Of a stretch of DNA of 64,000 bases, positions 19,697-56,180 are shown piece by piece (the first letter of the stretch is position 1; the number at the start of each line of letters is the position of its first letter). This stretch comes from Neodothiora populina. Its lineage: Eukaryota. Location: positions 1,116,001-1,180,000 of the forward strand of contig NW_027191408.1 in assembly GCF_041146345.1 (NCBI RefSeq), given 5' to 3'. The position numbers and the translations under genes were made by a program. The notes under the pieces are model-generated. The model did not search any database, was not told where the DNA came from, and was given only the letters and a program-made list of their open reading frames with translations.

Positions 19697-22600
19697 TTAC
19701 ATCTCAGCTAGTTGACGATCAATCTCGCCGTCCAAGAAAGCCCTCTTGCCGGCATCTAGTTGCGTAGCCAGCTTCTGCTCCGTCAGAGCCTTGAGCTGCT
19801 TCTTCGTCACACTGTCGAGATCCACCTCGCGCAGGCACTCGGCCACAGCCATGCCGATGTCGTGCTCGCTGACTCCACGGGTCTGGAAACCGTTTGGACC
19901 GAGACCGATGGTGCTCTGCGGACGAGACGCACCCAGTGGTGAGCGCTGTCGAGGCACACCTGCTCCGGGTCCCTGTAACGGTGGTGACTGTTGTGGAGAC
20001 AACAGATCGGTCTGCGATGGCAAGCCTCCAGGGGGAAGCAGTTGCGAGTTTTGTCGAGAGTATTGTGGTGAGTATTGACCTTGTGCCTGCTCGGACATGC
20101 CTCCCATCGACATGAGACGACCGTGCTCGGTAGCATGGTCGGTATAATGCGAGTATGAGCTGACACGGTTCATGTTGGAGAATGGATTAGGAGACTGAGT
20201 GGGCGGGCGGTGAGGCATGTTTTGGTGCATTTGAGGATGGAAGCCCGTGAGGACAGTAGAAGCAGGCTTGACACTGCTGTACATGCTTTGCATGTCATCC
20301 ATCTCATAACCGGGTTGCACTGGGTAGTCGGAGTACATCATCTCCTTCTCCATTTCAGGGTTGCCGCGTGCGCCGGGTAGGTTGTTCATCATGGCGTACT
20401 CGTCCCAGCGTTGGAGAGGAATGCTGCGCGGATCGAAGACTTCCTCGTCAACGGCCACGATTTGCTTGCTTCCCTTCTCTCCGATGACAACACGAGTGTT
20501 ACCCCAGGAGAAATCGTCCTGCTTCCAGAACGAGTAGATCGGAAGAATAAACGAGTAAATGGGATAGGCCATCAGATAGATGATCATCCATCCGATGTGT
20601 TGCCATTGGCGCTTGAGGATGAAGATGATAGCTTGCAAGCCGTACACACCCGCCAGCATAATAATGGAAACCATTGGGAATTGTCCAGTACCAGTCGAGG
20701 CGACGACGATCAGGTAGACTAAGTAGACGCAAGTGGCTGGGAGAATAATGGTACCGAAGAGATCGACAAAGACGACGAAACGCATACTGAAACAACAGAA
20801 ACCACACAAGTCCTGAATAAAGATGAGCTCGGCCAAGTTGTGGATGGTAGAGTTGATCCAGCGACGACGTTGTGAGAGCAAGACGCTCCATTCTTCGGGT
20901 GCAGCAGTCAGAGCATACGCATCTGGGACAAACTTGAAAGAACACTGGGGAAAGTGCTTGAGCATGAGTGTGGTCAAGAAACGATCTTCTCCCAGAGACA
21001 GCAGATTCTTCTTGTGAAGGGTGTCGACATTGCTAAAGCTGTATTCTTCAATAATTGCATCGGAGATGATCAACGGTTTGCCCTTGTCAGCTGTTCGCAG
21101 ACGATACATGGTGAAACTGTGAAAGTAGATGGTCAGCTGAATGTTCTGTTCGCGTACAGGAGACTTGAGTTGACATGACTTACCATCCAGGCAAACAGGT
21201 GACGCTGCCGAACAAACTCTCGAAAGCCTTTGCAAGATGATGGGAGATATAGTATTCATAGACCTGGATCATAGTCCACCAACTGCGTTCTTCGTTTTCA
21301 AGACTGGTTTCACCACAAATACCAGCGATTTTGGAATCGTTGGCACAACTTGCGACGAGTCTTGTCAAAGCATCTTCCTTGACGAGTGTATCGGCATCGA
21401 CCATCAAGAGGTATTCGTAGAGCTCAGGGTCGACACCAATGACATTGTTGATCTGGTGGAACATCTCAAGCTCAAGAGGGGACATGGGAGAACGATGGTG
21501 TACACGATTAAGGAAGGACATGAGCAGAATCTGGGAGTCACGCTTGCCACGATTGCCAGGCTTGGACTTGGTTTGCTCGGACTCCTTGCCGACTTTGACG
21601 ACAACGATGTAAGGCACGACATTTCCTTCGAATTCGTAGAGACCAGAGTAGACCTTTCCGTAGTTGAGCTGTTCGTTTCCGGTACCGACAGACTTGAAAG
21701 GAAGAGCGGGAGGATCCATCTTGGGGTCGACACCGAGGATATCAAGGACAATTTTAGGTGTAGGCCGATCGTTACCACCTCCGACAATCATACCGTCGCA
21801 AATAACGCAGATGAGCTTCCTCTTGTTGTCGTAGGCGAGAGCTGTCAAAGAGTCCAGACCCTTACGCAGATGGTCTTCACCCTCAGTGTATGCAGGCACT
21901 TGACAAATGACGAACTTGTCCTGCGGTGCAGGTCTTCGCTTCGAGCCAAACTGCAAGGCAGCCAAGAACTTGATCAAAATAACAGCGCACATGATGATAG
22001 TGAAAGCCAGCAAAATGTAGTTGTTGACCTGACAGCGGGGCGAGTCTCTGAAGTCAAGTCTTCCCACGTAGAAGTTGTTGTCCAAACACTGCATAATGGC
22101 AGAACTCGCGGTGACGTTGCTGGCGAGCTTTTCCTTGAATTCCGAGGCAAGGTCACCGCCAGGGTTGTTGTTCACAATGTCATTGAAGGTGTCTCCAAAA
22201 AAGTTGTACTGGTCGAGGTTGTTCATCAGATCAAGAGTGTAATAATAGTCGGTCAGATCGTAAATCTTCTGGCCCATTGTGAACCATTTGTGACCGTCGT
22301 TCTCGCCCTCGTTCCTGACCTTGTTCTTCTTGACCACAAGGTCACCCTTGTAGTACTCCTTCATTCTGGGCAGGAAGTCTTTGTTGTACCAATCGATGCT
22401 GTGAAGCTTGGACGTGGGGGTTGTCTGCAGACGTGGTCCGGAATCGTGACTGGCCTGTGGGTAGAGGAGCGTGGTGTTGTACTGCAGGACAATAGTGTTG
22501 TCTTGAACGAGTCCAGGGCAGGCGATTGTGAGAGGGGGGCGAATGTACTCGGTCACGTCGGTACCGGCGAACGGTTCCATGTTTGACTGTGTGGTCTCGG

Positions 22601-25194
22601 TAGGCAAGTCGCTGTGTTGCAGCTTCCAAAACTTGGACATGTCGTAAACATGCCCGCGGTAGCTGACGTACCAATCGTTGTCGCCAGTGTGATAACCGAC
22701 TTCTTTGGCATTCCAGGCCTTGGCAGACTTGGGACACAAAACTTTTCCAAAACCGACAATGTAGAAAATGACAGTGGCGTTGATCAAAAAGATAATCATC
22801 ATTAGAGTGAACTTTTCTCTCCAAGCAAAACGAACATCGGGACGCTTCATACGGCCGAGGTAACGAAGGGCGAAAGAAGGGATGAAACAGGTCATGATCC
22901 AACAGGTGGCGACCCAGATTTTTCTCGCACGTGTGATGGGAAGCTCGGTGATGACCTTGCCATCACCTTCCTCAAGTTCGCCGTAGTATGAGATGCCGTT
23001 CTTATCGTCACCCTTGGTGCCGAGGCCGTAGTCACCCTTGTAGGCACTTCGGACTGTCTGGGCGCCTGCTTGGGTAGGTGCAATAGATCTGGCGCCCATT
23101 TGGCTCTGGTTTGCAAAACTCTGGTTGCGGCTGAGGAGGTTCTCCCTACTGGGATCGGCGAAAGGGCCCTGGCCGTAGAAGCTATCCGCGATCATCGGAG
23201 TCGAGACCTGGTAACCGGGCATGCCAGCCGGAGGGGCAGGTTGCTCCTCGATAGGCTTCATGTCAAGCATGCTCTCAGCCTCCCACCAGGCGGCTTCACG
23301 CATCCAGATGCGCTCGGTGCCGATGATGACCTCTCCGTTGCTCCAACCGCGTTCCATGATCCAGCTCTCGACTCCCTCGCGGCCATCTTGGCAGCCAAGG
23401 CGAGAGTAGCGATCGACGAACTCGACGAGGTCGAAGTCGGCCGTATAGTCGAGCTGTTTGTTACGGTAATTGGCCCACTCGGCCAATCTCCATGCGCGGA
23501 TCTGACCAGACACGGATCCAGCAGACCATGGGAAGACACCGGGAGCCTGGTTGGCAAGAGATGCAGGAGTGGCATCGGTGGGGTGCATAGCAAGATGGAA
23601 CCACACACGACTGCTGGCCAGCAAGTTCGGCAGACTGAACCTCCCAGTCTTGCCGAGAACGACACCCTGGCCGTCGATGGGATAGACAAGGCGACGCAAG
23701 AAGCTGTCGGCCTCGGTCTCAGTGCCAACCTTCTCGAGCACACCTTCACGGCGGTCGAGTGTGTCCGCGCGATCCTTGGCCTCGACACCTCCAGGGATGT
23801 CTAGATCTGCCTCACTCTCAGAAACAGCGGTCTTCATGTCCTTGATCACAGAGGAGCCGGCGTTGACCACAGGGACACCGTCCTCGGTCATCTCGGCGTT
23901 GATGCCATGGGTGTTGTCGAAGACGGTGCGGAGGGCGACAGCTTTGCCCAATTGTTGACTCGGTAGCTCGATAACAGTCAGACTGACGCTGTCACCCTCT
24001 TCCTGGTCGGATGGAGGGGTGAGAGCACCTCCACGCTCACTGTCCGAGGAGTCGGCACCAACACCCACTGCGGCGAGCGGGGAGGGACGGACGTGACGCA
24101 TCTCGATGCGGATGGCCTCGTTGGCTTTGGCGATGACCCAGTCGACGAGAGATTCGTAGATGGCAGCGATCAAGATCTGCCTGTCGAGGGTATCACATTT
24201 CTTGAGCAGAACGTCGGTGTCGAGGTCCAGCAGGTCTGCCACCTCTTCACAGGTGCTCTCGAGCACATCCTCTTCGACGAGGAAGCCAAGGGAATCGCCT
24301 AGTTTCAGGATTGCCGCAAGAGCAGACAGCATGTTTCGCAGAGCAGCTCCCTTGATGCCGATTGCCTTTAATGAGTCCCTGAAGTCCTCTGCAGCAGCAG
24401 CGTCGTCGGCGGTCGGGAGGTATGAAGGTGGGGAGTATGTCTCCGTCTTTTTCAGCAGAGTGTAGGCAGAAGCCGGTCGCAAGCTGAGAGCCTCCCTCTC
24501 AGCAGCAGAGGCACCAGTGAGAAGGTAGTAGAACACATCGAAGGCTCGGTATCCGGCCTCGGGAGGCACCTCGAGGAGACCGTTCTTGACGTCGATTCCA
24601 GAGGTAGAGAGAGCGATGGAAGCACCGATGATCTCTCCAGTCAGGGAAAGGTTGAAGGTAGCGGCGAGATTCTCATGTCGAGGAGCGGCCGGGTTCCTGG
24701 GAGTGACGCATTGGAGGAAGGGTCGTAGGGCGCTGAGGGCGGTAAAGACTGATGTGGGAGCAGCAAATGGCAGGGCCGAGATGAAGGGGATGAGAAGGGA
24801 AGGGGTCGAATCGTGAGTAGAACTGTGGTGACGGATGATCAGTACGACGCGTGTCCATTTGAGCAAGCAGACGGAAAGTATCTTTCCCAGAGAGATAAAC
24901 TCACCCTAACACAATACATCCGTCTTCCGCCCTCCGTCGAGCGTGTTCCCAGGCTCTGTGGGCGAGCTCTGCATCCACAAGACCGCCTGAGACACCGTCT
25001 GGACCGGCGTTGAGGCCAGTGACCCAGGTGTTGATGACCAGACTGGTGCTAGATTCGAGCGAGTACGGTTGTGCTTGAGTGTAACTCGTGTGAAGGGCGT
25101 TCAGGAGCGTCGTCGTCGACACTTGCTGGGCGACATGAAGTGCAGATCGATGGGCGTTCGACGCTGTCGAGTACATGGACATTCGAGATGCCAT
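19697..25194 (-). CDS. csmB: Class VII chitin synthase with short myosin-motor-like domain (CsmB/ChsVb type), ~1782 aa; exons 25194-24905, 24822-21184, 21116-19697
   Basis: Myosin-like N-terminus lacking a P-loop, cytochrome-b5-like region (GHVYDMSKF), GT2 motifs [51 protein letters not shown], and a C-terminal DEK_C-like segment. Introns 24904-24823 and 21183-21117 restore the frame. Confidence 0.95.
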
Positions 25195-28209: not shown

Positions 28210-31200
28210 ATGGCTACCAGCGGGATGCCTCAGCACACGCAGGCCTCGTTGCCTGCGTTGCCTGCCCATCTCCAGACGGACACGCATCTCACAGCACATC
28301 TCGCCAGCAGATTCCATGTCTCTTTACCGACTGCCCAGCTGTCTTCGAGTGCTATAATCTCACTGAACACTTACACCTCGTCGACAAAAGGCCCTGATGG
28401 AGGCAAGGAGGGCAGCGCCATGGGCGCTGCCGAAGAGCTGGCCGCAAGAGCGTGGTCCAGACTGGGCGCCAGACAGGAAAACCAAGCCGTTGTCTTCCTG
28501 TAAGTCCTGCTCTTCGACAGAGCCGCTTTGGTCCATAGGACAATGATGATGATGTTCTTGTTGTTCTTGTTTTGATCGATACTAACACACCAATCTCCAA
28601 CAGGGGCGAGAGTGGTTCCGGCAAGACGACAATTCGCTCACACCTGTTGTCCTCCTTACTAAATCACACCTCCACTCCACTCTCCGGCAAGCTCTCGTAC
28701 GCCGCCTTCGTCTTCGATACCCTCACCACCACCAAGTCGGTCACTACGCCCACTGCTTCCAAGGCCGGTCTCTTCTTCGAGCTGCAGTATGAGACGACCG
28801 CCACCCTTCACCCTACCCTCATCGGCGGCAAAGTCCTCGATCACCGTCTCGAACGCAGCCGCATCGCATCGGTGCCACCCGGAGAGCGCAGTTTTCACAT
28901 CCTCTACTACCTTCTCGCCGGTACCAGTCCAGCCGAGAAGGACCATCTGGGCCTGAACCTCACTACTTTCTCCGCCAACAACAGACACTCGATTGGTGCC
29001 TCGCAAAAGAGATGGCGATACCTGGGCCACCCCTCCCAGCTCAAGGTTGGCATTAATGATGCCGAAGGGTTCCAGCACTTCAAGACCGCTCTGCGTAAGC
29101 TTGAATTTCCTCGCGAGGACATTGCCCGTATGTGCGAGATCTTGGCCGCTATCCTCCATATCGGTCAACTCGAGTTCGAGAGCACTCAATCCACCACTCC
29201 TGCACCTGATGATTCCGGCGGCTACTCTCATGAGGGTGGCGAGGACGTCACGGCCGTAAAAAACAAGGAGGTCTTGAACATCGTCGCTGCCTTCCTGGGA
29301 GTCAGCGAGAGACACCTGGAGGAGAGCCTGGGATACAGGACCAAGACCCTCCACCGTGAACGTGTCACTGTCATGCTTGATCCCAAGGGCGCCAGAGAGA
29401 ATGCCGACGAGCTTGCTCGCACCCTGTATTCTCTGCTGGTAGCTTTCATCATGGAGAAGGTCAATTCGAGACTCTGTGCACCCGAAGACAGCATCGGAAA
29501 CACCATCTCCATCGTGGATTTCCCTGGCTTCGTCCAGACGTCCCCAACCGGTTCCGTGCTTGACCAACTCCTCAACAATGCCGCTACCGAGTCTCTCTAC
29601 AACTTCGCCCTCCAGTCCTACTTTGAGCGCAAGGCCGATTTGCTCGAGACCGAGGAGGTCAGCGTGCCTGCTACGAGCTACTTCGACAACACAGACGCCG
29701 TCAAGGGTCTGCTGAAATCTGGCAACGGCCTACTCAGCATCATGGACGACCAGATGCGCCGCGGAAAGTCAGACATGCAATTCCTTGAGAGCATCAGGAA
29801 GCGTTTCATGGGAAAGAACCCTGCCATTGAGGCGGGTAGTGCCTCTGCTCACATTCCTGGTAGCAACTTTGCCACGCCCAATGCCGCAGCCACGTTTACC
29901 GTGAGACACTTTGCTGGAGAGGTCGACTACCCCGTCGATGGTCTTCTCGAGGCCAACGGCGAAGTCATCTCCGGCGATCTCATGAACCTGATCGCAAAGT
30001 CTTCAAGTGACTTTGTTGTCGAGTTGTTCGGCCAGGAGGCGCTGAACAAGGTTGTCCATCCCCGTGAGCGATCAGCTGTGGTCCAGGCGTCCGTGGCCTC
30101 CAAGCCCTCTCGCATGCCTAGCACCGCGAAGCGAAACGGAAGACCTGTCCGACTCGGCACGAGACGTGACCAGGACGATGGCAGTGATGAAGGCGGAAGG
30201 AGCGCTTCGAGGAGCCGTAGGATCGATGCCGGATCGCAGGAAGGTGCTGCCGCTCAGTTCGTGACATCTATCAACAACATCACCAAAGCGCTGTCAGCTC
30301 CGGGAACGAACCCTTACTTCGTCTTCTGCTTGAAGCCCAACGATCGAAGAATAGCCAACCAGTTCGACTCTAAGTGCGTCCGCACTCAAGTCCAGACCTT
30401 CGGAATCGCCGAAATCAGTCAACGTCTGCGGAACGCCGACTTCAGTGTGTTCATGCCCTTTACGGAATTTCTCGGCGCCGCCGAGGGCGAGGTGTCAGTC
30501 ATTGGCAGTGACAGAGAGAAGGCGGAGATGATCCTCGACGAGAAGAGCTGGCCCAGCAATGAAGCCCGTGTGGGCGCTACTGGTGTCTTCCTTTCCGAGA
30601 GATGCTGGAGACAGGTGGCCAACATAGAAGGACTCGACGCAGCTCCTGCCAGCTATCACGATGAGACAGCCTACGGCGAACACAATGCAGCAGGCCTTCT
30701 GACGCCTGATGCGGCTGGCCGAATGAACCAGAGCGATTCAAGAATCAATCTGCTCAATTCTACGGCTACGTCGCCCGGTGCTTTCTACCATGATGACAAA
30801 ACTGCTGGCTACTTCGGCAGCAGGGATCTTGATGCGAAATCTGAGGCTGGTGCTTCAGCATTCCACCAAGGCGACATGTTCCATAACCTTGAGACAAGAT
30901 CACAACTAGCCGAGAAGGGCAACGAAACGAAAATGGCCGAGATCGACGTGCTTCCAGTCAGCGGAAGTCGCAAGAGATGGCTTTTCTTCGTCTGGTTGTG
31001 GACCTGGTGGGTTCCCGATTTCTTCATTCGGAAGATCGGTCGTATGCCCCGCAAGGATATCCGAGTGGCATGGCGAGAGAAGTTTGCGATCAACATGATG
31101 ATTTGGTTCAGCTGTGGTTTCGTCGTCTTCTTCATGATAGGGTTTCCCGCCCTCATTTGTCCCACTCAGCATGTCTACTCGGCTGGCGAATTATCTTCTC

Positions 31201-33950
31201 ACAACGGCAAAGGCAAAGCGAACTCGTTTGTTTCCATTCGAGGTGTCGTGTTCAATCTCGGCGACTTTGAGAACGTTCATTACCCAAACATCGTTCCAAC
31301 CAAGGATTTGCAAAAGTATGCCGGAATTGATGCTACAAACTTGTTCCCCATTCAAGTGTCTGCTCTCTGCCAAGGCGTAAATGCCACTGGTATCGATCCC
31401 GCCGTCCAGCTCAATTACAAAAACACAAACTACACCGGAATGGCTTCGACTATCAGCAGCACCGACAAACACGCCCAGTACCATGACTTCCGCTGGGCTA
31501 CCAATGACTATCGTCCCGATTGGTTTGCCGAGCAAATGATCATGCTGCGAGGAAACTACAAAAAGGGCAACATCGGATACACAGCGAACTACATCAAGAA
31601 GCTGGGCAACAAACGACAGTCAATTGCCATCATCAACAAACGCATCTACGACTTCACCGATTACATTGTCGGCGGTCGCACCTCGCAGTACCCTCCCGGC
31701 ACCGATATGTCAACTGTCACTCCTCCAGATACCAACTTCATGGACCAGGATCTCGTCGACCTTTTCCAGCAGCGTGCTGGTCAAGATATCACCAAGGACT
31801 TCAAGAGACTCGACATGGACCCAGGTCTCCGACAACGTATGCAAACTTGCATGGACAATCTTTTCTATGTTGGTGATGTCGACCACAGAAACTCCGCTCG
31901 TTGCTTGTTCGCAACTTATCTGCTGCTTGCTATATCCTTGTTTTTGGTTGCGGTCATCCTTGTCAAATTCGTCGCCGCCCTGCAATTTGGTGGAAATAAC
32001 ATGCCGGAGAATCTCGACAAGTTCATCATCTGCACTGTCCCGGCATATACAGAAGACGAAGACTCCTTGCGTCGTGCCATTGATTCTGCTGCGCGAATGA
32101 AGTATGACGACAAACGCAAATTGCTTATGGTCATCTGTGACGGTATGATCATTGGTCAAGGCAACGATCGTCCCACGCCTCGCATCGTCCTGGACATTCT
32201 TGGTGTGCCAGAGACCGTCGACCCAGAGCCTCTGAGTTTCGAATCTCTCGGTGAAGGACAGAAGCAGCACAACATGGGCAAAATCTACTCCGGACTTTAC
32301 GAAGTCGGTGGTCACATCGTACCCTTCCTTGTTGTCGTCAAGATTGGAAAGCCTTCCGAGGTCTCTCGTCCGGGTAACCGTGGTAAGCGTGATTCTCAGA
32401 TGATCTTCATGCGATTCCTCAACCGTATCCACTACAACATGCCCATGTCGCCCCTGGAGCTGGAAATGCATCATCACATACGAAACATCATTGGTGTGAA
32501 TCCGACGTTCTACGAGTTCTTGTTGCAAATCGATGCCGACACAGTCGTCGCTCCTGACGCTGCTACTCGCTTCGTCGCATCTTTCTTGCATGACACCCGC
32601 CTCCTTGCTGTGTGTGGTGAGACAGCCTTGTCCAACGCCAAGTCTTCCATTGTCACCATGATGCAAGTCTACGAGTACTACATCTCACATAACTTGATCA
32701 AAGCATTCGAGTCCCTCTTCGGTTCCGTCACCTGTCTTCCCGGTTGTTTCACCATGTATAGAATCCGTGCCGCGGACAGTGGCAAACCCCTGTTTGTCAG
32801 CAAGGAGATCATCGACGACTATTCCGTCGTGCGTGTCGACACCTTGCACATGAAGAACCTTTTGCATCTTGGTGAGGACAGATATCTCACGACCCTGCTC
32901 CTGAAATATCACCCCAAGTACAAGACAAAGTTCATCTTCCGCGCACACGCCTGGACTATCGCTCCCGACTCGTGGGCTGTCTTCATGTCTCAACGTCGTC
33001 GCTGGATCAACTCTACTGTTCACAACCTTGCGGAACTTGTTCCCATGGCCGAGCTCTGCGGTTTCTGCTGTTTCTCCATGAGATTCGTTGTCATCCTCGA
33101 TTTGATCTCCACTCTCGTCCAACCAGTGCTTGTGGCTTACCTGGTCTATCTGATTGTTCGTATAGCGGAAAACCCGTCCGCGATCCCTGTCACGTCTTTC
33201 GTCATGTTGGGCGCTGTGTATGGTTTACAAGCACTGATCTTCATTATTCGTCGCAAGTGGGACATGGTTGGCTGGATGATCATCTACATTCTTGCTATTC
33301 CGGTCTACTCACTCGCTTTACCATTGTATTCTTTCTGGCACATGGATGATTTCTCATGGGGTAACACTCGTGTGGTTGTCGGTGAAAAGGGCAACCAAGT
33401 CGTCGTGTCCGATGAGGGCAAATTTGATCCTGCTTCAATTCCCAAGAAGAAGTGGGAAGATTATCAGGCGGAGCTGTGGGAGGCTCAGACACAGACTCAA
33501 TCTCGTGCAGGCGACTTTGATGAGACTAAGAGTGTCATGAGCGGTGTGTCTTACGCGACAAGGTCTCAATTCCCTGGCATGGGCGGCAGCAGCGTGTATG
33601 ATCAACATGGATACGCATACCCACCCTCTCGAGCCATGTCACAACTTGGTGTACCGCCCGCCGGTGGTCCGTTCAACCAATCGAGGTTGTCGGTCGCTCA
33701 ATCTGCATATGGCGGTCACGCTGGTTTCGACCCGCAGCATGGCGGCATGGAGATGACTGACATCTCTAATCTGCCTACCGACGATGCTTTGCTTGCTGAG
33801 ATCCGCAACATCCTCAGCACCGCTGATCTAATGACCATCACGAAGAAGGGCGTCAAGCTGGAGCTCGAGCGGCGGTTCGGTATACCACTTGATGCGAAGA
33901 GAGCTTACATCGGTTCCGCCACCGAAGCTGTGCTCAGCGGGCAATTGTAA
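28210..33950 (+). CDS. csmA: Class V chitin synthase with myosin motor domain (CsmA/ChsV/Chs5 type), ~1878 aa; exons 28210-28499, 28604-33950
   Basis: Intron 28500-28603 (GTAAGT..ACTAAC..CAG) yields [13 protein letters not shown] (intact P-loop); [17 protein letters not shown], b5-like domains, [39 protein letters not shown]-like tail. Confidence 0.97.
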
Positions 33951-41531: not shown

Positions 41532-42879
41532 ATGTTCGCTGCTCGTCAGGCTTTCGGTGCCGTTCAGAGAAGGGCCTTCTCTGCCACCGCTCGTGATGTA
41601 AGTGCGCATCCTATAGCTTCGCAGCAGCATTCACTGGCCGCTCTCAATGATGCCAATTGCGCCTGTGGCATGCGCGGATGTCTTGTGCTTCTATAGAGAG
41701 TAAATACTGATGATTTTCTGTGCGGCTTCAGGCTTCCAAGGTCGCCGTTCTCGGTGCCGGTGGCGGTATTGGCCAGCCTCTGTCTCTCCTCCTCAAGCTC
41801 AACCCTCGCGTGACTGAGCTCGCTCTTTACGACATCAAGGGTGCTCCCGGTAAGTCACGAATTTGAAATCAGGACCACTAGAAGGCAATGTGAGCGTCTG
41901 CTGATACTCAATCCTACAGGTGTCGCCGCCGATGTCTCCCACGTCAACACCAAGTCTGTCGTACGTCATCAGTATTTCCTCGACCTTTCGAGTATCTTCA
42001 AATGGACCGGATCATTAATCAATTCGCCTACAGGTCAAGGGCTACGAGCAGGCCGATGTTGCCTCGTGCTTGAAGGGCGCTGAGATCGTCCTCATCCCCG
42101 CCGGTGTCCCCCGCAAGCCTGGCATGACCCGTGACGACCTTTTCAACACCAACGCCTCCATCGTTCGTGACCTCGCAAAGGCCGCCGCCGAGAACTGCCC
42201 CAACGCTAACATTCTCATTATCGCCAACCCTGTATGTCCTGCTGCTTGAGACAGTGACAAAAGAAAAGCGGAATTGACAAAGATACAGGTCAACTCGACT
42301 GTACCCATCACCGCCGAGGTCTTCAAGAGTAAGGGTGTCTACGACCCCAAGCGTCTTTTCGGTGTCACCACCCTCGACATCGTCCGTGCCTCCCGCTTCA
42401 TCTCTCAGCTCAAGGGCACCGATCCCGCCAACGAGAACATCACCGTCATCGGTGGTCACTCCGGCGCCACCATCGTTCCCCTTCTCTCCCAGGCTGGCTA
42501 CAACCTCGAGGGCGAGGAGCGTGATGCCTACATCAAGCGCGTCCAATTCGGTGGTGATGAGGTCGTTCAGGCCAAGGGTGGAGCTGGCTCTGCCACTCTC
42601 TCCATGGCCATGGCTGGTGCCCGCTTCGCCGAGTCCCTGCTCAAGGCTGCTCAGGGCGAGAAGGGTGTCGTCGAGTGCACTTTCGTCGACTCTCCTCTCT
42701 TCAAGGACCAGGGCATCGACTTCTTCTCTTCCCAGGTCGAGCTCGGCCCCAACGGTGTCGAGAAGATCCACCCCGTCGGCAAGGTCACCGAGTACGAGCA
42801 GAAGCTCCTCGATGCCTGCCTCAAAGACCTTAAGGGCAACATCACCAAGGGTGTCAAGTTCGTCCAGGAGAACCCTTAA
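41532..42879 (+). CDS. mdh1: Mitochondrial NAD-dependent malate dehydrogenase, ~337 aa; exons 41532-41597, 41732-41849, 41920-41960, 42034-42231, 42289-42879
   Basis: Presequence [100 protein letters not shown]; four canonical introns; strong C-ending codon bias. Confidence 0.97.
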
Positions 42880-43066
42880 ATGCTGACATTTCTTGAAAAT
42901 TTGTCACGAATTGTATAATACGTATGAAGGATGGAAGCCCTTGGGAAAGTCTAGGTTTTTATGAAATCAACAATCAAGATTTGGCCATTCCACTCTTACT
43001 TTCTGAGAAAGGAGGAGGAGCATTGCGACCTGTGATGGCTTAGATGACATTCGTAGACATCCAATC

Positions 43067-45910: not shown

Positions 45911-46317
45911 CTTCGCTCCTCGCGAGACTTTTGACTCCATTGTCATCATAGTCGGCTGTTGTCGATCAACTACTATTTCCAAGACTTGCTGAGGCGACCA
46001 GAGGCACAGCGAACGCGACCGAACACACAGCCCACTTTGCTGCGCCGTCTTTGCACCGCAAGTATTTTGCTTCTCCTCACTTCAACGAACAAAACCTCGA
46101 GTGCTCCCAATTCTCTTCAGTACAGGACACTCCTTTCCTTCCAGCACTTTAGTTCCTCTACATATCTGACTGATCATCCGTGACGTCTGGTGGTCGTGAT
46201 AGACCGCACCGACTGGGAGTGAGCAGAGGGACATCGCCCCGACCATCTTGCTCCGGTCTGCATACACATATAGCCTCGACCACCCACCAAAAAGGTCGAC
46301 GGGGTCGATAGCTCAAG

Positions 46318-47258
46318 ATGGCAAACAACTTCTATGATGAGAGACTCATCTCGCTTCTCCAACGTATCGAAGACAGGGAGACTGCAGGAAAATTCGTCTC
46401 AATGCTGGACAACCTACAAAATTCAGCCAGCGACGTGAATGAGACGATAGCATTCTTAAGGAAACTGTTCACGTACAGCGAGGAGGAACAAAGGCTTCTC
46501 CTGTCCCATCGCAATCTACAAAAGCACTTGCATGTCGCGTGCAACCGTAAAAGCCCTCGTCAGTATTTCTCCAGTCTGTCGAAAATCGGTCGTGCTGACT
46601 TTACTGGAAAGAGCGTCCTGCTACTCAGACAATGCCGAATGAGCCCACACCGATCCAACCCGTCAAAAGAAACTCGAAGAAACAGCGCACTGGCAAGCTT
46701 GGGGCAAAGATTCCTCGATCCACTGTCAACTGCACTGAAAAGAATTGCAGTAACGTCTACAGAAAGGAAAGATTCCTTAGAGAGCACCTTGTGCTTGGCC
46801 ATGGCGATTCGAGAGACTCGGCTAGTGACCGAGCGAAAGCCGCCTTCGCCCAAATGCGAGGTGAACATCACACCAGACCGAGTCTCATATCTGAAGCGTC
46901 CTCGAATCGCCCACCATCTCAGATGCTCAGCGATGTCACCGGCTGCGCAAGCTCCGAAGCCGAGCTGCTGCTAGTGTCGCCCAACAATAATAACAACAAT
47001 AACAACATGTACAACAACACTTTGTCTCGGTCCACTTCAGCCCCAAGCTTCATGAACGTATACAGTCCAATTGCAGCAGTGAACGGCGACACCACTCGGA
47101 TGGATCCACAATACAGCTCGTCTTATTTTTACCCCAATGGGCAAATTCCTTGGTCTGCGAATTTGACCGACATGAACAATCCGCCTCCGTCGGGGGCTGA
47201 CACGCGCCTTGTGACACTTTACCCACCGCAACAATACGCCGAGATGCACTGGAATTGA
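46318..47258 (+). CDS. Orphan single C2H2 zinc-finger protein A, ~295 aa; exons 46318-46558, 46612-47258
   Basis: Intron 46559-46611 (GTCAGT..GCTGAC..AAG) joins two ORFs in frame; basic patch KRNSKKQRTGK; finger CTEKNCSNVYRKERFLREHLVLGH (46731 onward); poly-Asn and low-complexity tail. Confidence 0.75.
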
Positions 47259-47554
47259 CGTCTGTCGTACGAACTCTAAGTGAGTGACAGCGCCATGAAA
47301 GTCGATAATGCTGCAGCAAGAGCCAGTCAGGACGAAGTCTGACCACAAGCGCATATCGAACAAAAGATATAAAGATTCTCCTATGTTTTGAGCCTCTCAC
47401 GACTAGTATGATCCATTACTCTGCCACGCGGAGATGGTGAACACCTTGTGGAGGAGATACACAAACCATGTTCTCTGTTTCTGCATTCGCTCTTGGATTA
47501 TTTTCTTTTGTTCGGCAGGATACCCATTGCTGCGATTTATTTCTACCGCGCTCT

Positions 47555-48410
47555 TATAAACTCATTCCTATATACACAAAACATAGTCATTCAACATGTT
47601 TGAAAACCAAAGTCTTCGATCTGCGGTCTTCAGTCTGGGCAGTCTTATGCACAACCATTCTCGACTTGCTTCTAGACCAAGCATGCTTGTACCAAGCGTC
47701 GCACAATAGTCCAGGCCAGTCCAAGTTCTGGCACTGGCGCTGTTTCTTTAAGCTTATGCACGTAACGCACCCTGCAAAGTCACAGTGCAAGACTGGACGG
47801 AAGGACGGGGCGGGCGGCGCGGGCAGCGGCTTGTCCTTCCCGTCGACGATCCAAACGACGGGGTCTCGCGGCGGGCGGCCGGGCGGGCTTCTCGATCCGA
47901 ACATCCCGATAACGAAGGAAAGTCAGAAAATCCCCCGGGGTGAAAACCAACTGCTTTCCCACCGCACTTCTCGAACGAGGGCCGCTTCGCCAACGTACAG
48001 CAGTGCCGTGCAGGGAAGTGCAGGGCAGTGCAGGGCAAGGGCTCCTTCGTATATCGGTAAAACCTGTCGATTTGCATCTGTGTGCCACATTTTCCCATGC
48101 GCTCTCACGTAGTAGAACGGCCAAGAACTGAAATGGGTCGTAATTCCTTCCCGCTGGGTAAGCTTAACCTAATCTGAAAAACGGTGCATGAACTTGAAGA
48201 TGCCGCGCGCGCGCTGCTGTACTACACTACTGGACTGGGGGTTTTCCATTTGGGGGGGGCGGAAGCCATTCACGCCCCCAAGGTCCATGCGATACATGTG
48301 TACTTGACCTTAATTACACACGGGATGAGCTCCACGTTGGATTTAGCGTCGGGCCTATTGTACCAGCGTCATGGAACCACCACAATGATATATTGGGGAT
48401 TTTGAGCTAC
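47555..48410 (+). ncRNA. Candidate structured RNA block 1 (possible paralog of block 2)
   Basis: TATAAA 47555; 14-bp stems 47796-47809/47830-47844 and 47906-47919/48043-48057; shares the two-part motif with 49392-49627. Confidence 0.35.
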
Positions 48411-48901
48411 TGTAGTGTGCTTTCTTCGAGGTCAATGATCCTTTGTACGATGATAAGCACGAGTCAAACTTCAAATGTTTCTCCAACCTGCTGAGACGAT
48501 GTCCAAACATGCGACGATGACGGCGCGGATTTCACCCCAATCTGCAATGCCAAATGCACTGCCCGTTCGCGATGCAACCCTGCGATGTGTGGTGATCGTT
48601 ACAGCAGGCTTGCCAGCCCAGTCAGCCAAGCCGTCCACACAGAGCAGAGGATAAGAGAGATTACCTTCAAGGCTGCAGTGCAGGGACGGGGGTGTGCACT
48701 ACGTCTCTCCAGATCTGTAGCTTTTCTTGCTTTGCTCTTCCGGGTCTTTGGGTTTCGAGTGAGTGCTAGATGTGACCACTCCTATCATGAAAGCCTTCTC
48801 TCCGCCGTTTCGAACAATGGTAGCGTGGCAATTTAGCTGCCGTATTTAAGGTTGAGTACTACACCGCTCGAACAGCACAATGGCACTGCAGTCTTTCGGT
48901 T

Positions 48902-49740
48902 TATAAATAGTCTTCGACCGTTTCCTCAGATCTTGATCTGGAGAATCATGTCCAGATAGCACGAAGGTAGGAGAAAGTCGGGCCCTGCGAGAAGAAGGAA
49001 GCGCATAGGGTCGAGTTTGGGGGCTTAGGCTAAACCCAGATAGGGAAACGCAACACGGCGATGTGAGGGTGTATCCTCTGCCTCACGATTAGACACCCCT
49101 TCTCTCTGCTAAGGGACGCCTTTTCTGTTCACCGTCTCGTCATGCCTGGTTCTTGAGTCGCGAGGGCAGACCACACGCACCTACTCACCGCCAATTCGTG
49201 AGAGAGGGAGTGATGGTCTTGCTAGACCTAAGGTCCTTGAGGGACCTCGATAAGGCCGAGGCCCTGTTCAAGTGGCTTGAACACGACGGAGCCACTCCCC
49301 GTTAGCACTGCGCTGCCGGAGTGAACACCTACGAGCGGATGCGGACACTAGACGGTCTACGTGAGGCAAGCAGCTGCCCCCAATGGCTTCTTGTCGATTT
49401 TGCATCCTTCCATATGTGGCACATTTCTGGCGAACCAGGGTCCGGAGTCTACACTGGGAGGAGCCCAGAATTTGGTCAGCGCTGGGCTGGGATCCAACGG
49501 ATGTCGAATGCCGGCCAAACCAGTAGCGATTGCAGAAAGGGCATACGGGCATTTCGACCCCTTTTGATTGCCGGACCATAGTAAAAGCCGGTGATATGTA
49601 GGATGGGGGCGGATGGATTTTGTGCGTGCGGAAAAGTTGGTAGACCTCGCCTTTTGAAACAATGGGCGATAAACTCTACTGTTTGGTTGGCGCAGTCCAC
49701 CATCCTTTTCGGCTCTAGAGGCAGGCGAGGGACATGCATG
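48902..49740 (+). ncRNA. Candidate structured RNA block 2 (possible paralog of block 1)
   Basis: TATAAA 48902; dense hairpins including a multibranch domain at 49206-49299; shares the two-part motif with 48065-48349. Confidence 0.4.
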
Positions 49741-50306
49741 GACAATATATATCCCGCTTCAGCTTCTCAAGCATCGATAGCGCATCGATAACGCCTTCCC
49801 TCGGCTTGTAATGCCGTCCTTCGTTACATGACGTGGCTAATCCACAAGCAAAGCAATTAGAAATGGTATTCTGTACGTGAAATACAGCCTCGTAATCTAT
49901 CGGGTATCTAGAGCAAATGTGATCGGAAAAAAGCGCCAGCAATTAAAATATCAGGAAAATTATGTGTCCATAATCAAATCATCTCAATGTCAGGGCATGC
50001 AGTGGTTAAGGGAAAGTCGAAGTCATGATGCAAAGGAAATAGATGTCATCGAAGATGACTCGGTAGGAAACATGATGACACTCTGAGAATGGAAAAACGT
50101 CTGAATCCATGAGTGCATCTCGATCGCTTGCCTGTGTCCAGGGCATCTCGCTGGCTCACAAGACAGCGCGATCGGGGATCACCGGGAGGCAACTGGTCTT
50201 CCACATGGATCGTGTCATGTTTACAATACTGTCGACATGTGTTTGTGTATGAGTGGATGGTGCAAGGGGGGCCATCATACAATCGTGGTTGTCGCACACC
50301 CTTGTT

Positions 50307-51562
50307 TCACATGTTTCTCAACGATAAATCGTCGAAGGTGGTGTACGGCTGGGTATCAGCGAAGCTGTTACCAGTAGGGTCCGTGGTCACGCCAAACAGA
50401 TTATCCTCGAGATTCGTACGGGTCTGTTCTTGTACACTATTGTTCAGTGCATCCGTAACTTGGAATGTGTCCGACGCGATGAGGTCTAGATCCATTGTGG
50501 TGGAGTCAGGATACCTGAAGGACCCCGATTCAGATGCCCAACCTCCGACTCCGCCAAGCTGTTGTATAGTTCGCGGATGAGTAGGCTGCAATTCGAACCC
50601 GATCGCAGTGTTTACGTCGGGATCTGGTGTATTTGCTGGAAGACTAGACGTCAAGTCCATATCAGGTTTGGTGTCGAAGAGCTGTTTTGCAATATATTTT
50701 GCGTCTTCCACCTCCTTGTGATGTACCAACGCGAGATGCTCTCTCAAGCCTCGAGCTCTCTTGTACACTCTATCACAGTCTTCAGGGCATTGGATGGTGG
50801 GGACCTGTGAAGATCTTGTTGATACAGATGATTGGTAAGAAAGGTTTGCATGGTAGCCCACTTGAAGTCCAGGTGTTGTCACTGCAGCGTTGCCACGAGA
50901 GGATGAGGAGATCATGATCGGAGCTGCACTAGTAAGACTTGAGCCTGCTGACTGGTATCCACTACTTGCTCTTCCAGAAGTATCTAAAACAAGGTCAGAT
51001 TAATGAACATGGATGGGTATATGTTTGACTTACAGTGCTGAGAGAAAACAAGGCGAAAACTTCCTTCTGGATCTGGATCCGTAATAATGGTTTGTACTGC
51101 CAGTGCATGCAACCCGGCTTTGCGGGCCAGATCTGTTGCAATGTATCGATGATGGTGAATTACATTGATGAGGTTGAAGGCCTTTTCAATACCAATTTCC
51201 ATGAGTACAGCCGAGCAGCCTCTGTCAGATGGGGATGTAGGTACAGATGAAATTATCCCAGTAGAAGGAGTCACAAGTATTATCCCCATTCTCTCTGGAA
51301 TCAAGGAATACCATACTTTGCAGATGTTGGAGACGTTGATCTCGGGAATACAGATATATCGTATCCTACCACCAAATTTTCGATGGAGTCTTAAAACCAA
51401 TATGTTGCCGGTGCCTTCTGCTATTGTGTCGCATATTATGACTTGTTGATGCTCAAGAAGAGGTAGCGAGATGTTGTACTCTTGCCTGAGCGCATCCAAC
51501 TCGATCCTCCATGCCTGAAAGAGTGACGGGATGATGATGGAATCTTTGAATGGTTGTGACAT
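50307..51562 (-). CDS. Orphan single C2H2 zinc-finger protein B, ~401 aa; exons 51562-51034, 50983-50307
   Basis: Intron 51033-50984 (GTAAGT..TCTGAC..TAG) fuses the 192-aa and 202-aa ORFs in frame; finger CPEDCDRVYKRARGLREHLALVH (50789 downward); acidic tail. Confidence 0.75.
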
Positions 51563-55422: not shown

Positions 55423-56180
55423 ATGGCTTCACGCATAACCCACGTTGCGGACGAGGAATCCAATATACAAAACATCACCTTACTCGTAAACGAATTTGGA
55501 CCTGCAAAGGCACTGCAAGTCAGCAATTCCTTGTTCAGCGTTGGTCAAGCCTGTGTCCAACAAATTTGCCAGTCGCACCAACAGAACCTCGCGGTGCTAC
55601 GGTATCAGGATATGTCGCCGAGTAAGTTGACCTACCTTTTGTGTGTTCACTCTGTAGACTTACATCGAGAGCAGATGGGGACCAACATTCGAGGAGGCAC
55701 AGACCGCGTGGCTCACGATACAGACCGGGATCAAAGACGTGAGTTCCAGCAATGCTTGCCTCATATCTTACAGCTGGGAGCTAACACTATAACAGCCCTA
55801 CAAGAAATGCTGTAGCAGGCGTGGCGGAATTTTGTAGAGTTCCAGGATGCCAGACCCGAGTCGCATATAAAACTCCCCGGGGTTATAGAGAACACCTCAT
55901 CTTGAGGCACAACGAGCCCTACATTTCTGCTGTTGCAGCAGCAAAAGCGGTATTCTCTCGAGATAGGCATTCTCGGTCTGAAGGATCCATCAACGACTAC
56001 GTCTCAGGGGATGAATCCTATACGTCCCCTGCCGGAACAAACCAGCCTGACACCGACAACACAATGACCATGTGTGGCTACGGAACAACTCCTATGCGTG
56101 ATTCGATCTTTTCATTCGACTTCGACGATGGGCATGGACAAGTCCACGACGAGTTTAGTCTCTCAGCAATACGCAATTGA
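55423..56180 (+). CDS. Orphan single C2H2 zinc-finger protein C, ~215 aa; exons 55423-55621, 55675-55738, 55796-56180
   Basis: Introns 55622-55674 (GTAAGT..CAG) and 55739-55795 (GTGAGT..GCTAAC..CAG) give one open frame; basic exon 2 (HSRRHRPRGSRYRPGSK); finger CRVPGCQTRVAYKTPRGYREHLILRH (55833 onward); acidic/aromatic tail. Confidence 0.75.

Follow-up and report, generated by a model that had tools for sequence, protein, structure and literature searches.

The window, i.e. the whole stretch of 64,000 nucleotides that was analysed, holds a 2.8 kb non-coding gap between two convergent C2H2-finger frames. The left frame (46599..47258, + strand) and the right one (50307..50999, - strand) each contain a lone C2H2-like finger, and are related, with 43% identity over 42 aa. 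A third related finger frame lies in the same gene-poor island, at about 55866-55994 (+), and a fourth finger match was found within a long frame on another contig (C6:2926412-2926582, 38% over 56 aa). Two large protein searches returned no homologue of the left finger protein outside its own genome, and the island was therefore read as gene-poor and fast-evolving. Elsewhere in the window, two features can be used as synteny anchors: a head-to-head pair of chitin synthases with myosin motors (19697-24905, -, and 28539-33950, +), and an intron-rich gene at 41533-42880 (+) that reads, by eye, like a mitochondrial malate dehydrogenase. On the other side of the gap, MFS and GH18 genes are found at 57-60 kb. 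The arylsulfotransferase at 35.8-37.7 kb has its best named relatives in Delphinella, Sphaceloma, Elsinoe, Myriangium, unnamed Dothideomycetes and other ascomycetes, from which we assign the host to the Dothideomycetidae or their vicinity.

Both units examined here lie in the gap between the finger frames, spaced by about 1.3 kb, and each is preceded by a TATA hexamer. Upstream of unit 1, TATAAA at 47555..47560 (+) may be a promoter-like element or may mark the 3' end of the left gene. It is followed by TATATA at 47569, by a C/A-rich leader and, 41 nt after the first hexamer, by a 38-codon ORF (47596..47712, +) in a CAAC-ATG context, an arrangement that, over 47555-47712 (+), resembles the 5' part of a small expressed gene. 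Upstream of unit 2, TATAAATA is found at 48902..48909 (+), where the minus strand also reads TATAAA (48905). The earlier note placed these hexamers 510 and 490 nt upstream of the 5' blocks, and these distances are correct. Additional hexamers had escaped it: TATAAA at 47368, TATATA at 47569 and 49746, and TATA-like hexamers on the minus strand at 49751, 48905 and 47574. In total, the gap contains 8 TATA-like hexamers (5 on the plus strand, 3 on the minus strand), versus 3 and 1 in two neighbouring gene-poor stretches. GC-rich short tandem repeats (GGCG runs, and GCAGGGCAGT repeated 3.8 times) occupy 47800-47890 and 48000-48042, and resemble promoter-like low-complexity DNA; GTGCAGGG occurs again at 48678, outside these stretches.

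The two units share a bipartite motif. The 5' block of unit 1, TGTCGATTT-GCATC..TGTG-C-CACATTT (48065..48092, +), has its counterpart at 49392..49426 (+) in unit 2, and an exact DNA palindrome, TGTG-N-CACA, is present in both (48081-48089 and 49415-49423). The 3' block consists of a shared 7-mer and two short words at loose spacing, reading GGATG-N10-TGGATTT-N1-GCGT in unit 1 (48323..48349, +) and GGATG-N8-TGGATTT-N3-GCGT in unit 2 (49601..49627, +). All block and TATAAA coordinates of the earlier note proved letter-for-letter correct when the sequence was read again. The stem proposed there between the two blocks is also complementary: in unit 1 the 3' arm (48317..48327, +) faces 48075-48084 with 10 pairs, one of them U-G, and one bulge; in unit 2 the arm at 49594..49605 (+) faces 49403-49415 with 11 Watson-Crick pairs and one 2x1 loop. 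The palindrome is stem-paired in unit 1 and only partly so in unit 2, so that the stem does not explain its conservation.

We then asked how far each piece exceeds chance. The 5' blocks align with a score of 26, against a shuffle mean of 21.5, and 62/1000 dinucleotide shuffles reach this score. In this comparison with shuffled controls, which the earlier note had named as a possible refutation, the block stands above the shuffle mean, yet is matched at an appreciable rate. Among real neighbouring tile pairs, the score was matched in 31/304, and, over nine scoring schemes, in 8 to 128 of 615. With three scorings that make long gaps cheap, it was reached by 21, 59 and 1 of 383 pairs. When the comparison was extended to 1328 neighbouring tile pairs in 270 kb, 31 distinct alignments, the observed one included, scored at least as high. 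The letters and positions of the shared motif stand, and a clear excess over chance does not, with shuffles or with neighbouring tiles as the null.

For the other pieces, the 3' block (score 14) is equalled by 99.9% of 2000 random pairs, and the best alignment of the downstream regions is a different 9-mer. Of 1000 random regions, 67% and 33%, for the two units, offer the 5' arm a duplex as good as its best one with the region downstream of it, and 12,823 of 22,550 random trials yield two stems of at least 10 pairs with the same 4-mer as their core. MAFFT alignment of the two units did not place the blocks in register. As the earlier note had it, the enclosed domains are not alignable, sequence comparison finding no alignable sequence between the blocks; likewise, in the 500 nt from TATA to block, the similarity of the two units is limited to scattered 9- to 17-mers. 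Each piece taken singly is hardly more than chance.

The whole combination is rarer. Given the real 5' blocks, the full 3' pattern (a stem, with a shared 7-mer and a 4-mer beside its arm) was obtained in 109 of 22,550 random trials. An earlier joint null, with 2141/7036 at its tightest setting, missed the stem of the real pair and was superseded by this one. In the joint test on 270 kb, the 1328 tile pairs yielded 153 alignments scoring 27 or more, of which 143 entered the stem test, the 10 longer than 60 nt being excluded. Five of the 143 passed the strict stem-plus-flank test: the present pair, three pairs that were discounted because their offsets are under 250 nt and their flanks overlap, and one clean pair, which lies in the window (37178/38873, block score 28). 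TATA hexamers at a matching distance were found for the present pair alone among the 153. This uniqueness of the whole combination in 270 kb is the strongest result in favour of the earlier idea, and it is weakened by the fact that all thresholds were set at the observed values and that the control pairs are probably mostly coding. Multiplied by hand, the separate rates come to about 3e-7 per tile pair; if some six criteria are allowed to trade off, 0.1 to 1 equally striking cases are expected per 64 kb window, again by hand estimate. We take the joint likeness to be suggestive, yet within what chance can give in a genome-wide scan.

The earlier note had looked to further homologues for support, and none emerged, whether as a third copy in the genome or in a metagenome pattern scan. 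In the genome (24 Mb, 18 contigs, the context of all genome-wide searches), the combined 5' pattern occurs exactly twice, and nothing else in the 270 kb around the locus comes within 5 mismatches of its 25 letters. None of the extra genome matches has both blocks, and they are about as frequent as with reversed-pattern controls; one, on C1, lies antisense inside a long coding frame, and others are on C8 and C15. At eight other TGTGNCACATTT sites, the 14 letters upstream differ at 4-8 positions, and the second block is missing. A third exact TGTCGATTTGCATC was noted at C13:1676240-1676253 (-), where a preceding GATGC closes a small hairpin; no other block was found around it, and the count equals that of the control. 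The metagenome scan, an insensitive search for exact patterns among few fungal contigs, gave 13 loci with 7 distinct sequences, and the 3' block in 0/13. An equally insensitive exact-pattern scan of viruses gave one match, inside an apparent coding region. A transposon, MITE or other dispersed repeat, a match to which the earlier note had named as a refutation, was discarded: the locus is single copy by DNA search and has no terminal repeats, a decayed relic being able to escape this search, which skips very common words.

Four sequencing runs contain near-identical short contigs at the locus. Six of the 8 non-repeat pieces end on both sides at CCGG, CTGCAG or ATGCAT, which makes them DNA restriction fragments, uninformative on expression or divergence. 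A 205-nt piece that spans the second TATA, from a run marked 'RNA? (probably DNA)', was not used as evidence. A literature search that covered few subscription papers returned no description of these motifs and no paper with the block letters, which are also absent from three supplementary files of PMC5640933.

Folding was compared with that of shuffled sequences. On the plus strand, the whole units fold no better than shuffles (z -0.98 and -0.85), nor do the enclosed domains (z +1.08 and +1.22). On the minus strand, z values were +0.51, -1.75 (unit 2, the lowest), +0.81 and +0.22, none of them significant. The proposed stem has an ensemble probability of at most 0.06 on the plus strand in ten contexts. 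On the minus strand it ranges from 0.003 to 0.24, with 0.17-0.24 in unit 2 only and 0.0 in the wider unit 1 windows. Forcing the stem in tight plus-strand windows costs 2.4 (unit 1) and 1.6 (unit 2) kcal/mol above the minimum, and random stems come equally near to it in 166/634 and 166/584 cases. In wider windows, the cost is 2-4 kcal/mol in unit 2 and 12-15 kcal/mol in unit 1. Two other structured stretches were noticed outside the blocks: at 48487-48608, between the units, a 24-nt inverted repeat closes a multi-branched fold (z -2.0 on either strand), and at 49170-49340 (+) short hairpins are clustered, one of them a perfect 8-pair hairpin at about 49267-49285 (z -2.0).

Our best explanation, to which we give a probability of about one half, is that the likeness is a chance resemblance. 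The gap would then be unremarkable intergenic DNA, flanked by two orphan zinc-finger genes whose 3' ends face each other. The 28/35-nt 5' block would be a top-few-percent local match, of a kind found many times between neighbouring stretches of the genome. The 3' block and the stem would be what comes out of a search, over a few hundred bases, for one 7-mer in common and one 4-mer able to pair, and the TATA-like hexamers, of which the gap has eight, would serve as weak promoters or mark 3' ends. We infer that no selection acts on the motifs; what we observe are the statistics above, an absent third copy and an absence of predicted stable folding. The interpretation of the earlier note, that the units are RNA genes, was neither refuted nor backed by positive evidence for an RNA. 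If the likeness is due to chance, its value is one of calibration only, placing a 26-letter gapped match together with a 10-pair long-range stem within the reach of chance in fungal intergenic DNA.

Should the likeness be real, the better mechanism, possible if unlikely and conjectural at every step, would be an ancient duplicate pair of non-coding RNA genes, each about 0.8 kb long, transcribed by Pol II and equipped with a bipartite protein-binding site. Each transcript would start 30-60 nt after its own TATA box. A helix with a CAUC/GAUG core, extended by complementary sequence specific to each unit, would close a variable domain of 170-230 nt, and would hold UGUCGAUUU and UGGAUUU single-stranded at either side, as a putative two-part protein-binding site. 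This layout resembles that of snR30 m1/m2 or of the RNase P/MRP P3 loop; its sequence differs, and the units would belong to neither family. That the stem extension differs between the units and pairs in both, with one U-G pair that works on the plus strand only, is consistent with such genes. So are the rarity of the full 3' pattern given the 5' blocks, the nearness of the stem to the folding minimum in tight windows, the unique TATA coincidence, and nested helices that are predicted inside unit 2. This is countered by the low probability of the stem and its high cost in the wider contexts of unit 1, by the lack of a folding signal, of an Rfam match and of a third copy or homologue, and by pairing with rRNA and U6 that is not above chance. 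The 500 nt between TATA and block, whose similarity is limited to scattered words, and the palindrome, whose pairing register is not the same in unit 1 as in unit 2, also argue against it. More specifically, it is unlikely that the units are two tandem, paralogous, TATA-driven lncRNAs of an undescribed class, in which a long-range helix presents UGUCGAUUU and UGGAUUU to a protein, and in which evolution is free to change the enclosed domain and the first 500 nt. If the RNA reading were true, a new class would join the long structured RNAs of filamentous ascomycetes, and the paralogues would directly mark its functional core for mutagenesis and pull-down.

Alternatively, the blocks may be homologous or convergent DNA elements, either what is left of an old tandem duplication spanning about 1.3 kb, or transcription-factor sites that recur (TGTG-N-CACA and TSGATTT), the stem being incidental; we regard this as rather doubtful. 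The offsets between matching features fall smoothly, from 1347 (TATA) through 1327-1334 (5' block) to 1278 (3' block), and the island carries three diverged paralogous finger frames, pointing to old local duplication. The palindrome is exact in both units, and 270 kb contain only 7 of its kind, these two included; within 43-57 kb, TSGATTT has four occurrences inside the units and a single one outside them. However, nothing is alignable between the blocks, and the palindrome followed by ATTT is not clearly enriched genome-wide, with 10 occurrences versus 6 for the control pattern. A RIP-like dinucleotide skew, such as a formerly recent fungal repeat could show, is also missing (TpA/ApT 0.84 and 0.76), a weak argument, as RIP may be inactive in this host.

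A third possibility, which we consider very improbable, is a transcript of the minus strand, giving an atypical H/ACA-like RNA in unit 2, possibly with a 93-nt intron (49546-49454). Such an RNA would start after the TATATAT at 49751 and comprise, in order, a hairpin at 49713-49628, an ANANNA-like ACAAAA, and a long second arm closed by CAUCC/GGAUG and followed by ACA. The hairpin, the one strong local fold, speaks for it: this long interrupted hairpin of 86 nt (49628..49713, -), which adjoins unit 2, has a z of -3.4 (0/200 shuffles; z -1.2 on the plus strand), begins about 35 nt after the minus-strand TATATAT, precedes ACAAAA and is a single copy in the genome. The highest probability of the stem is also that on the minus strand of unit 2, and an intron-like GTATGC..GCTGAC..CAG lies inside this unit at 49454-49546 (-). 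However, the hairpin was chosen out of 144 strand-windows, and unit 1 has neither a counterpart beside it nor an ANANNA there. The ACA comes 7-8 nt after the stem with no lower stem, so that no canonical pocket is formed, and Rfam has no match. Nearby gene-poor DNA contains 0.3-1.35 intron-like patterns per kb, and trial splicing of 49454-49546 (-) gave no convincing protein. By itself, the hairpin could be a small-RNA precursor, an H-box hairpin or a chance structure.

Finally, it is hardly credible that the units code, or once coded, for short proteins, the blocks being coding remnants. In favour would be the open frame of 223 codons at 47441-48112, another of 162 codons with one stop at 49093-49578, and the start context of the 38-codon ORF behind the first TATA, but indels of 1 nt and 6 nt shift the frame across the block, the six-frame comparison of the units shows nothing there (its best score, 44, is elsewhere), the 223-codon frame has no Pfam match, Atlas recognition is low (1052, 1264) with no usable match, and the 162-codon frame has no paralogue in the genome.

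The units were also compared with known RNA families. The earlier note could not assign them to any, and this was borne out by a scan with Rfam 15, which gave 0 matches in the window at the gathering threshold; the best sub-threshold matches in 47200-50300 (E 5.7 and 8.7) are both outside the blocks. As to the known long RNAs, the host genome has its RNase P and MRP RNAs and a telomerase RNA candidate at other loci, and U6 and 5.8S rRNA were located on other contigs as well. Among small RNA classes, a Box C/D guide, whose antisense element precedes D or D', was rejected, RUGAUGA being on neither strand and CUGA beside neither block. A Box H/ACA guide, which would have its pocket 14-16 nt ahead of H or ACA in both units, fits on neither strand: on the plus strand, one unit has its ACA (CACAUUU) 7 nt farther from the conserved strand than the other, and on the minus strand the ACA (AUCGACA) lacks a lower stem, and ANANNA follows a hairpin in unit 2 only. 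A strict Sm site, RAU(4-6)GR, occurs once, at 48398, outside the blocks, and an Sm-class snRNA was dismissed as well. As for pairing partners, the unit 1 block pairs over 12 nt with 25S rRNA (-16.5 kcal/mol), as do 127 of 1167 random 14-mers equally well; unit 2 has 11 nt in common with 25S rRNA, as have 11-mers in other parts of the units. For the two 3' motifs, the best pairing is at one ITS1 site, at chance level (86/644 and 795/951), and mimicry of U4/U6 is achieved equally well by 135-455 of 500 random stretches.

In architecture only, the units resemble snR30/U17, a Pol II RNA of several hundred nt in which two single-stranded motifs flank a long variable stem. In snR30/U17, m1 and m2 pair with 18S rRNA, and m2 stands just before the ACA box. 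Neither m1 nor m2 is found on either strand of 47560-49760, nor is pairing with rRNA above chance; a genome-wide search for snR30 returned nothing, and nothing in any control either, which makes it uninformative. The likeness to the telomerase RNA of Pezizomycotina (RF02462) is that of a long, TATA-driven, fast-evolving Pol II RNA. The host telomere repeat is TTAGGG, and no AACCCTA or TAGGGTT template is found in 46000-51000. The candidate lies on C2, where a partial, sub-cut-off match to RF02462 (C2:481583-481674, -, 24.6 bits) has a template-like TAACCCTAA about 1.1 kb upstream, and is, judging from sequence, the probable telomerase RNA gene.

RNase P and RNase MRP RNAs are ancient paralogues that share P3 and P4, and are in tandem in some Pezizomycotina. 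The two units are like them in being, putatively, an anciently duplicated RNA pair with only short motifs in common. Both RNAs are treated in PMC3879985; they are defined by CR-I to CR-V motifs with the P4 pseudoknot, in a single-copy gene. The units are not this pair: the region gave no match, the motifs differ, and both genes are on C6, RNase P RNA at C6:479954-480275 (31.3 bits) and RNase MRP RNA at C6:599466-599950 (107.7 bits). In this host the two genes are about 120 kb apart and not tandem, and the MRP gene has an insertion of about 200 nt. Further parallels are the intergenic structures 1-4 of PMC8216456 and the motifs of PMC5640933, which are likewise candidates from filamentous ascomycetes that stand alone between genes and have no known function. 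As described there, these orphan RNAs of Pezizomycotina, with one of which the present units might coincide, average 92-144 nt, are mostly single-copy and show covariation in hundreds of genomes, with nothing comparable seen here.
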